From assembly GCA_000002445.1 (NCBI GenBank), contig CM000208.1, positions 3,104,001 through 3,168,000 on the forward strand: a DNA stretch of 64,000 nucleotides, read 5' to 3'. Numbering within the stretch: position 1 is the stretch's first letter; the number at the start of each line of letters is the position of its first letter. The stretch comes from Trypanosoma brucei. Lineage: Eukaryota. Of this stretch, positions 18,347 to 21,477 are shown piece after piece. The notes beneath the pieces are model-generated. The model searched no databases. It was not told the origin of the DNA and saw only the letters and a list, made by a program, of their open reading frames with translations. The position numbers and the translations under genes are program-made.

Positions 18347-18910
18347 CTAACTTAATGTGAGGACGTCCACTATGTTTTTTTTTTAAAGGTGAAAACAAAC
18401 ACACACTGTTCCCAATTTATGTGTACAATGCTGAAGGGTACAAGAGAACTTTTTTTATTGATTTTTTTTGTTTTTAATAAAGCAGGGAGGGGGGGGCAAA
18501 GCAGCGCTAGTCCCGAGCCCAATAAAAATGTCATTTGATTAACTGCATGCAAAGACAGGTAAACGAAGTGGGGTTAAAAGGGGAAAAGGAGCGGAAGGAA
18601 AGGTTCCTCCTCCTCCCTCCGACTCCCAAAGTTTATTGGATTTTCACTGTTATCGATATCGCTAAAGCTGCTAAAAAAAATATGTTCGCAGACAAGAGAG
18701 GGCAAATGTGAGCCTCACATTGAAAAATAAACTCCATAAATCCGTTTTGTACTCTACAAAAAAAAAACAGCCATAGAGCTGTTGTCAGCGCTGCAAGCAG
18801 TGGTAAACACATATGCCCAGCATCAGATAATGCAAGTACTTGTGTGTACCACACTTTCCTAACCTCCCCCCCTTTTCTCTTTAGATGTGACAGGTAAGCT
18901 GTTTTATCAC

Positions 18911-20368
18911 CTACTCGACTACCACAACCTCATTGTCAAGAACGCGTCCGTTCCCAATGATCAGAGGCTCTTCCTTCAAATTTTTAATAACCACATTCCC
19001 TCTAACGGAAACGTCGGCACCAAATTCCACCAATCCACGGACGGTAAGTGATGTGCATTGTCGCAAGGATGGCACTCCTCCCTTCACAAGCTTTTCGAAT
19101 CCGTCAATCATCTTGTAATGCTCACCGTCAAGATCAATAGCTGGTGGCTTTCCATTTCGCTCCTCACACAGAACAAGACGCTGATCCTCCGTCACCTGAT
19201 ACGCATCAGACCTTAACGCAAGTAGATCACTGCAAGTCTTCACAGGTGCAAACCGCTCCCTTGGAACCACTACTGCTTCCGATCTATCAAATAGAGAAAT
19301 TGCGGCACCCATCGCCACCTCCAGCTGGTACACCTTCGTTGATTGACTGTCCTGCGGGTTCACCGTCTTGGGGTTTCGCATCACTGGAAGCCGCAGCACT
19401 CCCAACTGCTCGTCCATCATCTTCTTCAATTCCATGAGATTTATCCAAATGTTGTTCGTATTAAAGAAACAGTGCTTCGCGATGTTTTGAAAGCTATCCT
19501 CATCTTCTTTTGGACACTGAGCAGATTCGCGAAGAACAAAACGTCGTCGCGTTTGTCCAGTAGTCTCGTCAATGACATCCTTGTACGCCAAGTGGCCTCC
19601 CTTTTTGTCTGACTCCGTACGGCGACACACCTCCATGAGAAACCCCAGCTGTTTTTCGTGCATATAGTCCAGAAGCCTCACATCTAGTGTCGCGCCAAGG
19701 TTGTCTCCGTTTGATATAAACATGTAGCGGTAGCCTTTGCCCAACAGGTAATCCAACTTACCACTACTGTAAAGCACCGTATATACGTCCCCGTGTCCTG
19801 GTGGTACCCACTCGCACGTTGGGTCAGCCTCGTAGGTGACGGGAAAGAAATTGTCTTGCCTTATCTTGGGCACTCTGTTTTGCATGAGTTCGATGTCTGA
19901 GTCAAACACCTCGTACAAGGTAGGATACTTCCGAAGAAAATTCTTAGTTTCTCCCGATGTGGAAAACGAGTTCATCAGCATAAACGGCACGTTACAGTTA
20001 CGCACTTGACGAAAATGCTCCAACTGCAGGGCTGTGAAGTCAAGAAACGTCTGGCCATTCTTCACCTGTAGCAGGCTCTTGGGGCCGTTCAACCCCATCC
20101 CGGTACCAAGACCGCCGTTGAGTTTAAGAACGACCGCTTGTCGCAGTAACGCAGTGTTTTCTCCCTTCGTTTCGATACCCTGAAGGAAGGGAAGAGATTC
20201 CACCGGAAATATTGACTTCTCGGGTATATAGCCGGTTTCTCCTTTCCGGACAAGAGCGTGTTGGATGAGGAAAATATGAATACACTTCTCCTCAACACCT
20301 GATGCCTGCATTTTTTCCAAGCAGGCCAAAGCTGCCCCTGAAAAGGCTGAAGGAGGGTTTAGCGGCAT
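18911..20368 (-). CDS. UGP: UTP-glucose-1-phosphate uridylyltransferase (UDP-glucose pyrophosphorylase), 485 aa.
   Basis: LKLNGGLGTGMG nucleotide-binding loop, NSFSTSGETKNFL, VPPGHGDVY, and a C-terminal left-handed beta-helix region typical of eukaryotic UGPase. The ORF-track ORF (18911-20521) begins inside an upstream (TTG)n repeat that translates as poly-Cys. The first credible start is the Met of MPLNPPSAF, the cat triplet at 20366-20368. Confidence 0.85.
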   Translation of the reverse strand: MPLNPPSAFSGAALACLEKMQASGVEEKCIHIFLIQHALVRKGETGYIPEKSIFPVESLPFLQGIETKGENTALLRQAVVLKLNGGLGTGMGLNGPKSLLQVKNGQTFLDFTALQLEHFRQVRNCNVPFMLMNSFSTSGETKNFLRKYPTLYEVFDSDIELMQNRVPKIRQDNFFPVTYEADPTCEWVPPGHGDVYTVLYSSGKLDYLLGKGYRYMFISNGDNLGATLDVRLLDYMHEKQLGFLMEVCRRTESDKKGGHLAYKDVIDETTGQTRRRFVLRESAQCPKEDEDSFQNIAKHCFFNTNNIWINLMELKKMMDEQLGVLRLPVMRNPKTVNPQDSQSTKVYQLEVAMGAAISLFDRSEAVVVPRERFAPVKTCSDLLALRSDAYQVTEDQRLVLCEERNGKPPAIDLDGEHYKMIDGFEKLVKGGVPSLRQCTSLTVRGLVEFGADVSVRGNVVIKNLKEEPLIIGNGRVLDNEVVVVE

Positions 20369-20468
20369 CGTGTGACACAACAGCACACACTGACACCGTT
20401 CCGAGGTATCTGATCTTATGAGCTTGCGTATTTTTCTGTTCGTTCTGAATTGTGTGCGCGTTTTTAAA

Positions 20469-20470
<2 letters not shown>

Positions 20471-20557
<87 letters not shown>
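20471..20557. repeat. Compound microsatellite (ACA/CAA)14 followed by (TCAA)11, in the 5' flank of UGP. On the coding strand it reads (TTGA)11(TTG)14.
   Basis: Read directly. This repeat creates the spurious poly-Cys, poly-Gln and poly-Asn ORFs in the track. Confidence 0.95.
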
Positions 20558-20831
20558 GCAACAAACATTCCAAGAAAAGGATGAGAGAAGGAAGTGCACG
20601 AAGTGACAACAAGGAAAGCAAAAGGTCGCTACCACCACACACACACACACACACACATGTGCATACTTCCCCAATCACTGGTCATTTTACGTGAATTCTT
20701 CCTGTTGAAAATCATACTGCATTAAATTTATTCCCTCTAAAAGGAAACAACATACGGTAACGCGAGAGTGACTTTAACTGGTCCTGCTACTGTGTATTTG
20801 AAACTGCCACCACATCAGGACTGACGCACCG

Positions 20832-20933
20832 AGCGATTATTCCTTTTTTTTTTTGTGTGTGTGTGTATGTGTGTGAGTGTGTGTTCGTTAACCCCCCCCC
20901 CTACACACACACACAAAAAAAGGAATAATCGCT
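20832..20933. repeat. ~100-bp imperfect palindrome: agcgattattcc-T11-(GT)n ... C10 ... (AC)n-A7-ggaataatcgct. It directly abuts the stop codon of the 181-aa gene (TAG at 20932-20934).
   Basis: The outer 12-bp arms are exact reverse complements (20832-20843 vs 20922-20933). The inner T-run/(GT)n pairs with (AC)n/A-run. The central loop contains C10. Confidence 0.9.
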
Positions 20934-21477
20934 ATGTGGTCAAGTGTGCAAACATCTCATGGAGCTCATGCTCTCCAACCCCCTCTTCATCGTCGTCATC
21001 AATATCTTCCCATTCTTCATGTTGGCATATCTTATTAATAGCTTTTTTACCTGTTCGCAACAGGATAGCTTCCTCAATAGCACCGAGTTCCTTCCGGTGT
21101 TTTTCCTCCTGTTCCTTTTGCAACTGCCGAATGTACTTCCCTAATTCCCGCCGCTCCATCTTGGCATCTTCACCCTTCCTAATCCTCTGCCGTCGCGCCT
21201 CCAGTTCACGTGTGTGTTCCTTTAGCACCATCCGTTCGGCCGCTTGCCGCTTTAGGAGTTTGCTACGCTCCGTCCGCAAGGCTGCAAAAACGTCTTGATC
21301 GCGTTTACCTGACCGCTTGTGGCCAGTCATCTTTTTTATTCTCAATGGCACAGTTTTGACCCCACGAGCAGCCGCAATCACAGCAGCAACGGAATCCAAA
21401 CAGCTACCCTTTTTAGCGCCCCTAACCTTCTTCTTGCGGAGGACACGGGAGTTACCCCCAACTCGGCGTTTGCCCAT
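20932..21477 (-). CDS. Small, highly basic coiled-coil protein (181 aa) with an acidic C-terminal tail. Hypothetical, possibly nucleolar or ribosome-biogenesis related.
   Basis: ATG ORF in the PTU orientation. Lys/Arg-rich N-terminus (MGKRRVGGNSRVLRKKKVRGAKKG) and an acidic tail (EDIDDDDEEG). Sized to fit the gap. The TAG stop at 20932-20934 was verified on the minus strand. Confidence 0.5.
   Translation of the reverse strand: MGKRRVGGNSRVLRKKKVRGAKKGSCLDSVAAVIAAARGVKTVPLRIKKMTGHKRSGKRDQDVFAALRTERSKLLKRQAAERMVLKEHTRELEARRQRIRKGEDAKMERRELGKYIRQLQKEQEEKHRKELGAIEEAILLRTGKKAINKICQHEEWEDIDDDDEEGVGEHELHEMFAHLTT

Follow-up and report, generated by a model that had tools for sequence, protein, structure and literature searches.

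Candidate template-switch origin of a strain-polymorphic palindrome at a stop codon of Trypanosoma brucei

Stem-loops can be functional parts of 3′UTRs in Trypanosoma brucei, as in the case of the 16-mer stem-loop in the procyclin 3′UTR, and elements of this type, which are short and are conserved from one gene copy to the next, have been shown by experiment to act. The procyclin 3′UTR elements are mentioned in PMC3141063 and also figure among the references of PMC2926603. Stems can likewise be the outcome of mutation. In the classical quasi-palindrome model (Ripley 1982; discussed in PMC5453318), a near-perfect inverted repeat is made perfect by a polymerase that briefly uses the complementary arm, and in the four-point model (Loytynoja & Goldman 2017, PMC5453318) a template switch leaves behind a cluster of apparent substitutions and indels, for which confident calls need a fragment of at least 14 bp. 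A mechanism of the same class, hairpin creation by template switch in RNA genes, has been proposed to create and maintain RNA hairpins (Monttinen & Loytynoja 2022, PMC8794818). Our literature search, which was of limited scope, returned no account of short template-switch events in trypanosomatids. Two other kinds of described sequence resemble the locus presented below, namely the mouse TG/CA-hairpin families mir-466 (Rfam RF04052) and mir-297 (RF04217), which have (UG)n and (CA)n arms, and compound microsatellites, in which T(n)(GT)n and (AC)nA(n) tracts of strain-variable length adjoin each other.

Here, we analysed a palindrome on chromosome 10 of T. b. brucei TREU927 that occupies positions 20832–20933 of a 64-kb stretch of DNA (hereafter the window) and ends, on the + strand, inside the stop codon of a gene for a basic protein of 181 aa that is encoded on the minus strand (CDS 20932–21477, stop codon TAG at 20934–20932). 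An earlier note on this DNA had described a near-perfect palindrome with outer 12-bp arms that are exact reverse complements, and every item of that description was recovered at its place. Read along the + strand, the distal 12-nt arm (20832–20843; AGCGATTATTCC, or GGAAUAAUCGCU in mRNA sense) is followed by T11 (20844–20854; A11 in the mRNA, the gene being on the minus strand), by an interrupted (GT) tract of ~13 units that forms the distal microsatellite arm (20854–20885; (AC)n in the mRNA) and by a spacer or loop (20886–20902) consisting of TCGTTAA, a C10 run (20892–20901; G10 in the mRNA) and a single T. The proximal half comprises the microsatellite arm (AC)6 (20903–20915; (GU)6 in the mRNA), A7 (20915–20921) and the proximal 12-nt arm (20922–20933; GGAATAATCGCT, or AGCGAUUAUUCC in mRNA sense), whose first two bases in mRNA sense are the AG of the TAG, so that the hairpin does start at the stop codon, as had been claimed.

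The two 12-mers occur nowhere else in the window, not even with 1 mismatch; 0.17 copies would be expected there, and 2 copies were reached in 1 of 100 shuffles. When the T/A runs and the (GT)n/(AC)n tracts are included, a repeat search gives arms of 36 nt that are 89% complementary and separated by a spacer of 40 nt, and the palindrome is the longest inverted repeat within 150 nt across the whole window. The arms are unequal, with T11 facing A7 and ~13 GT units facing 6 AC units, which leaves a 4-nt bulge and a large loop in the stem. GT/AC tracts of at least 5 units are few in the 64 kb (3 GT and 4 AC), and one GT/AC pair faces head to head at this site, so the scaffold, too, is more than a chance encounter of repeats. 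The locus shares its adjoining, length-variable tracts with compound microsatellites but differs from them in that its halves are mirror images, capped by 12-nt complementary arms that are unique in the window and not of low complexity; slippage alone cannot yield a palindrome with such mirrored halves and caps, and the earlier view that this is a composite structure rather than a plain microsatellite can be kept. The only other inverted repeat within 150 nt in the window that is not built of (AT)n lies at 1520–1591 (GATGGCGGAAAAATGGCCGG...CCGGGCCATTTTTCCGCCATC; 28-nt arms, 89% complementary, 16-nt spacer), within the first ~4 kb, a part that lacks ORFs of at least 150 aa and has a few of 100–145 aa; it has the best raw fold energy in the scan of the window, and its DNA fold has z = −7.1.

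Folding of the 3′UTR, which the earlier note had suggested as a check, gives a very stable hairpin. The mRNA-sense (minus) strand of 20822–20943 folds at −57.4 kcal/mol, compared with −24.2 ± 3.0 in 200 dinucleotide shuffles (z = −11.1), and as single-stranded DNA the segment reaches −34.2, compared with −9.9 ± 2.4 in shuffles (z = −10.1); in neither form did any of the 200 shuffles fold as well as the native segment. By raw energy the segment ranks 5th among the 8518 windows of a sliding 120-nt scan, despite its AT/GT-rich composition, and the four that outrank it are GC-rich coding windows or the 1520–1591 repeat. Both the palindrome and its fold stability are far beyond chance. On this folding model, mRNA of the TREU927 type should carry a Watson-Crick stem of ~33 bp that starts in the stop codon. 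The best Rfam resemblance is to mir-466 (32.5 bits, E = 3.6e-4, gathering threshold 85), mir-297 scoring 28.2 bits against a threshold of 90, and a scan of the whole window gave no match at gathering level. Membership in these two families was rejected, the scores being far below threshold and the match, which occurs on both strands, being compositional. No miRNA pathway is known from T. brucei.

All long ORFs of the window are on the minus strand, and we therefore regard the region as one polycistronic unit. The 181-aa protein is 100% identical to T. b. brucei TREU927 XP_827799 / Q388T3 and to T. equiperdum TEOVI_000424700. The next gene downstream encodes UDP-glucose pyrophosphorylase (UGP, Tb927.10.13130), and because of this adjacency we infer that the 181-aa gene is Tb927.10.13140, which a proteomics paper of 2026 names among the top candidates for trypanosomatid-specific small-subunit ribosome assembly factors (PMC13248013). 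A Pfam search of the protein returned only a sub-threshold hit to DUF7003 (17.8 bits, cut-off 27). The annotated UGP protein of 485 aa starts at the ATG at 20368; an ORF extension over 20369–20521 (minus strand), which begins at a TTG, crosses the (TTG)n/(CAA)n repeat and has a poly-Cys N-terminus, was discarded as an artefact of ORF calling.

The first AG past the T-rich tract upstream of UGP, at 20446–20445, is the predicted UGP splice acceptor. Since the published distance between poly(A) site and splice site has a median of 142 nt (IQR 123–178; PMC2936537), the polyadenylation zone of the 181-aa gene is predicted near 20567–20622 on the minus strand, ~200 nt beyond the hairpin. The 3′UTR would then be about 310–370 nt long, not far from the median of 388 nt in the literature, and its first 112 nt would be the hairpin. 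This rule-based prediction agrees with the earlier proposal that the hairpin lies wholly inside the 3′UTR. The segment at 20915–20929 gives an 11-nt polypyrimidine tract (TTCCTTTTTTT) right after the stop codon, with an AG 14 nt further on. The readthrough motif of tobamoviruses is UAG-CAR-YYA. A readthrough signal was considered for the 181-aa gene, whose UAG-CGA-UUA resembles this motif without matching it and whose context differs in the allele of DAL972 and IVM-t1 (see below), and the idea was dropped; readthrough of the TAG would append 10 residues before the next UAG.

We compared the locus with other Trypanosoma species. The gene order, i.e., an 852-aa-like gene, the 181-aa gene, UGP and a mitochondrial carrier gene, is kept in T. 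conorhini, T. theileri, T. cruzi and T. grayi, and also in T. vivax except for UGP. In the latter species (L003 and L004, 3535–4895) the stretch from the 177-aa orthologue to the mitochondrial carrier gene has no UGP call, which could mean that the gene was lost, has moved or was overlooked; UGP is present at this place in all other species examined. The T. congolense orthologue of the 181-aa protein (P0002) shows 65% identity, and the end of the CDS reads TTGACCAC[A/C]TAG in T. brucei, T. conorhini and T. cruzi. No palindrome follows the stop codon in T. vivax, T. conorhini, T. theileri, T. cruzi or T. grayi, and the equivalent ~135 nt of these five species fold with z of −1.8, −1.2, −0.6, −0.4 and −0.7, values that are not distinguishable from shuffles. 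The T. brucei spacer does not align with those of T. vivax and the more distant species. The earlier note had favoured a structured regulatory 3′UTR element and had itself pointed to orthologous loci as the place where this idea could fail. The comparison of syntenic 3′UTRs for conserved pairing has gone against it: the palindrome is absent from all five species, and z stays between −0.4 and −1.8. The 3′ flanks of the 181-aa orthologues of T. conorhini, T. theileri, T. cruzi and T. grayi have another feature in common, the 8-mer CGATTAAA, usually preceded by [AG][CA] and located 117–223 nt past the stop codon (L005 3751–3758; L006 3797–3804; L007 3661–3668; L008 3675–3682). It is the sole 8-mer common to the four species, is absent from the T. 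brucei and T. vivax spacers and may be a conserved 3′UTR motif.

Within the T. brucei group, four genomes were aligned: the window itself (TREU927), T. equiperdum OVI (L001), T. b. gambiense DAL972 (L009) and T. b. equiperdum IVM-t1 (L010). Over 6.5 kb they fall into two haplotype groups, TREU927/OVI and DAL972/IVM-t1, that are separated by ~45 isolated SNPs (~0.6%) and by changes in microsatellite length. The one complex difference outside simple repeats in this intergenic spacer concerns the stop-proximal arm of the palindrome, at 20914–20929. The distal arm reads A(7–11)-GGAATAATCGCT-CGGTGCGTCA in mRNA sense, and is invariant in all four genomes except that the A-run changes in length (A11 in the window, A9 in OVI, A10 in DAL972 and A7 in IVM-t1). 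Of the proximal arm, only AGCG (20930–20933) is common to the four. TREU927 and OVI have TAG-CG-ATTATTCC-T7–9-(GT)n (allele 1), whose 12-nt arm is the exact reverse complement of the invariant distal arm, and DAL972 and IVM-t1 have TAG-CG-TTTCAAT-(GT)n (allele 2), the two alleles differing by an 8-nt indel and 3 substitutions within 15 nt. The polymorphic cluster proper, ATTATTCC-T7 in mRNA sense in TREU927, lies at 20915–20929 on the minus strand. The OVI assembly, which is independent of that of TREU927, contains both arms and has an N-gap at the centre of the palindrome. Since allele 1 is carried by these two assemblies, each with private SNPs, it is a real haplotype.

The allelic difference has a strong effect on the fold. 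The hairpin that allele-2 RNA forms on the (GU)n/(AC)n core is a modest one, with −32 to −42 kcal/mol depending on the flanks and z of −2.9, whereas the allele of the window reaches −57 to −58 kcal/mol with z of −8 to −11; the absence of the perfect arm thus shifts the fold by ~16–25 kcal/mol. The simple tracts vary as well. Across the four genomes the A/T runs measure 7–11 nt, the proximal GT tract 6–8 units ((AC)n on the + strand, with 6 units in the window, 7 in DAL972 and 8 in IVM-t1) and the G-run 8–10 nt, and the distal AC tract (mRNA sense) differs by about 12 nt. As an alternative to regulation, the earlier note had raised the possibility of a replication-slippage hotspot. Length polymorphism among close relatives, the hallmark of compound microsatellites and slippage hotspots, was found in the T, GT, G, AC and A tracts alike, and one arm carries a complex mutation in addition, so this part of the note is borne out. 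A MITE or other transposon was also considered and rejected: the flanks, CACCG and ATGTG, are not direct repeats and thus show no target-site duplication, no copies of the 12-mer occur in the window besides the two arms, and allele 2 does not qualify as an empty site, having retained the distal arm along with both microsatellites.

Length changes were also seen elsewhere in the spacers around UGP. A (TTGA)n(TTG)n tract (mRNA sense) at 20493–20541 lies immediately upstream of the predicted trans-splice site of UGP. Its copy in the window exceeds those in DAL972 and IVM-t1 by 49 nt and that in OVI by 21 nt, and this T-rich, length-polymorphic tract is presumably a splicing signal. The third GT/AC microsatellite of the spacer, (AC)11 on the + strand at 20636–20657, ~200 nt from the palindrome, varies in length by strain, coincides with an N-gap in OVI and is up to 95% complementary to the GT tract of the palindrome, which would allow alternative long-range pairings. 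The pyrimidine-rich spacer on the downstream side of UGP holds another small complex difference (18477–18490), in which a CTC insertion and a G/A change distinguish strains and OVI has a 12-nt deletion.

We consider that a short template-switch mutation of the quasi-palindrome-correction type, on a (GT)n/(AC)n scaffold, explains the perfect arm best, with a probability of about 0.6 from the comparison of the sequences. What the locus shares with described cases of quasi-palindrome correction is a set of clustered differences between close relatives, an exact reverse complement of adjacent sequence, an imperfect repeat made perfect, microhomology and a fragment of more than 14 nt. The differences are crowded into a stretch of 15 nt between haplotypes that are ~0.6% apart elsewhere. 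The allele-1 segment with its flanks (AGCGATTATTCCTTTTTTTGTGT, 23 nt) is present as an exact reverse complement in IVM-t1, where it lies 64 nt beyond the stop codon, and DAL972 has 19 nt of the segment in the same way, the two matches being 63–64 nt downstream of the TAG; the fragment of 19–23 nt in the other allele exceeds the 14-nt threshold (PMC5453318). The allele-1 segment could thus be copied from genomes with allele 2, where its exact reverse complement already exists, whereas the longest source match for the allele-2 segment in allele-1 genomes is a 7-mer. By a simple arithmetic estimate, the chance that the 8 complex bases alone agree in register is 4^-8. On the two sides of the changed segment, allele 2 already contains the imperfect inverted repeat that the classical model calls for, AGCG/CGCT together with (GT)7–8/(AC)n, and microhomology is found at both proposed switch points, AGCG at one and the GT repeats at the other. 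The locus departs from the described cases in that the change is unpolarised and in that, on a microsatellite scaffold, the point of return is not exactly locatable.

From these comparisons we infer the direction of the change, its mechanism and its neutrality. The starting point would have been a scaffold made of a pair of microsatellites in inverted orientation, which in mRNA sense read (GT)n and (AC)n and lie ~40–50 nt apart. In the lineage leading to TREU927 and OVI, a single replication or repair error would then have occurred, in which synthesis left its template at the microhomology AGCG just past the stop codon, copied ~15 nt (ATTATTCC-T7, the proposed fragment F2) from the complementary version of the distal arm, i.e., with the distal 12-nt arm and the adjoining A-run as the proposed template, and returned to its own template within the (GT)n tract. 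TTTCAAT would have been replaced and the stem lengthened outward by 15–19 bp in one step, the outcome being exact 12-nt arms with mirrored T/A runs and a hairpin that is very stable both as mRNA and as single-stranded DNA. The homopolymer and dinucleotide tracts would keep changing length by slippage. The run lengths do not match in TREU927 (U7 vs A11), and the template-switch model must therefore assume extra slippage; they do match elsewhere, since A7 of IVM-t1 equals the U7 copy of the window and OVI has a T-run of at least 9 nt opposite A9, and the mismatch in TREU927 is easily explained by later slippage. Given the absence of conservation, we take it as most likely that the hairpin is a by-product, neutral or nearly so under selection.

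The two-allele pattern is unrooted and also fits the opposite polarity: TREU927 and OVI may have kept an ancestral perfect palindrome, made by an older inverted duplication or template switch, of which the proximal arm was partly lost in the lineage of DAL972 and IVM-t1 by a complex deletion-substitution, e.g., through microhomology-mediated repair at a hairpin break. Palindromes are described as fragile and deletion-prone (PMC7999016), which would suit such a loss, but this scenario needs an 8-nt deletion and a triple substitution TTT>CAA that have no convincing template. A 7-nt direct match to the allele-2 segment, GTTTCAA, does lie ~110–130 nt downstream as a possible source for templated repair, although by our estimate about 0.05–0.1 such matches would be expected by chance. 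RNAfold also adds some pairing into the conserved end of the CDS (TGAC.CAC / GTG.GTCA), and weak complementarity of this kind would suit an old duplication that copied the gene end; compared with random 10-mers of the window it is not significant by itself (P about 0.16), and we rejected it as proof of an old inverted duplication. As an earlier event would still be required to make the perfect arms, the reversed order takes more steps than a template switch in the TREU927/OVI lineage, and we regard it as a possible but rather unlikely course of events. Chance is a far poorer explanation. Low-complexity tracts could meet by accident, trypanosome spacers being full of homopolymers (in the window, runs of at least 8 nt number 22 for A and 15 for T), and an assembly artefact might be suspected since the OVI assembly breaks at the palindrome. 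The outer 12-mers are neither of low complexity nor repeated in the window, however, and no shuffle folded as well as this longest local inverted repeat of the 64 kb, both arms of which recur in the second assembly. Since the OVI assembly has a further break close by, at a plain (GT)n tract, its gap is the work of simple repeats and does not speak against the palindrome; the presence of both arms in OVI led us to reject an artefact, and we hold chance and artefact together to be very improbable.

The idea of the earlier note that the hairpin is a selected cis-regulatory RNA element, which would control stability, translation or termination of the 181-aa gene or be diced by the RNAi machinery, draws its appeal from a very stable fold that begins at the stop codon, from a predicted position within the mature 3′UTR and from the fact that trypanosome gene expression is mainly controlled via 3′UTRs (PMC2926603). 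The weaker hairpin on the (GU)n/(AC)n core, moreover, persists in both alleles. Against this stand the lack of any structure at the orthologous sites of the five species and the strains themselves, of which two of the four (DAL972 and IVM-t1) are missing the perfect arm and with it the strong stem. The tract lengths drift freely between strains, the allelic difference is one templated block change without covariation, and no Rfam family reaches its threshold. The palindrome is a stem-loop in a trypanosome 3′UTR like that of procyclin, but procyclin-type stem-loops are short and conserved, whereas this one is long, repeat-based, polymorphic and not conserved. We therefore consider selection for a regulatory role improbable.

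On the evidence of the sequence comparisons, the meaning of the palindrome appears to be mutational rather than regulatory, and it is best explained as a further example of a known mechanism, template switching, in a trypanosome. The stem or the polypyrimidine tract TTCCTTTTTTT could in principle affect termination, stability, dicing or processing, and the fact that the hairpin is not conserved argues that none of these effects is required. The case advises caution, as a striking hairpin (z = −11) at a suggestive site can be a mutational by-product, and comparisons of species and strains, both of them cheap, sufficed to reveal its lack of conservation. Because of its hypervariability and the difficulty of assembling it, the site is probably misreported by variant callers as several independent SNPs and indels, and it is a possible strain marker for haplotypes of the TREU927/OVI type and the DAL972/IVM-t1 type. 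As a case study it offers a clean within-species candidate for a template switch on a microsatellite scaffold in a trypanosome, and it illustrates how long perfect stems could originate in one step in 3′UTRs, the site of most regulation in T. brucei. There is a slim chance that this young hairpin already has an allele-specific effect, be it on stability, translation or Dicer cleavage or as a cryptic signal for trans-splicing or polyadenylation; if so, the locus would show, caught in nature, how a structured cis-element is born, in an organism whose gene regulation is almost entirely a matter of 3′UTRs.
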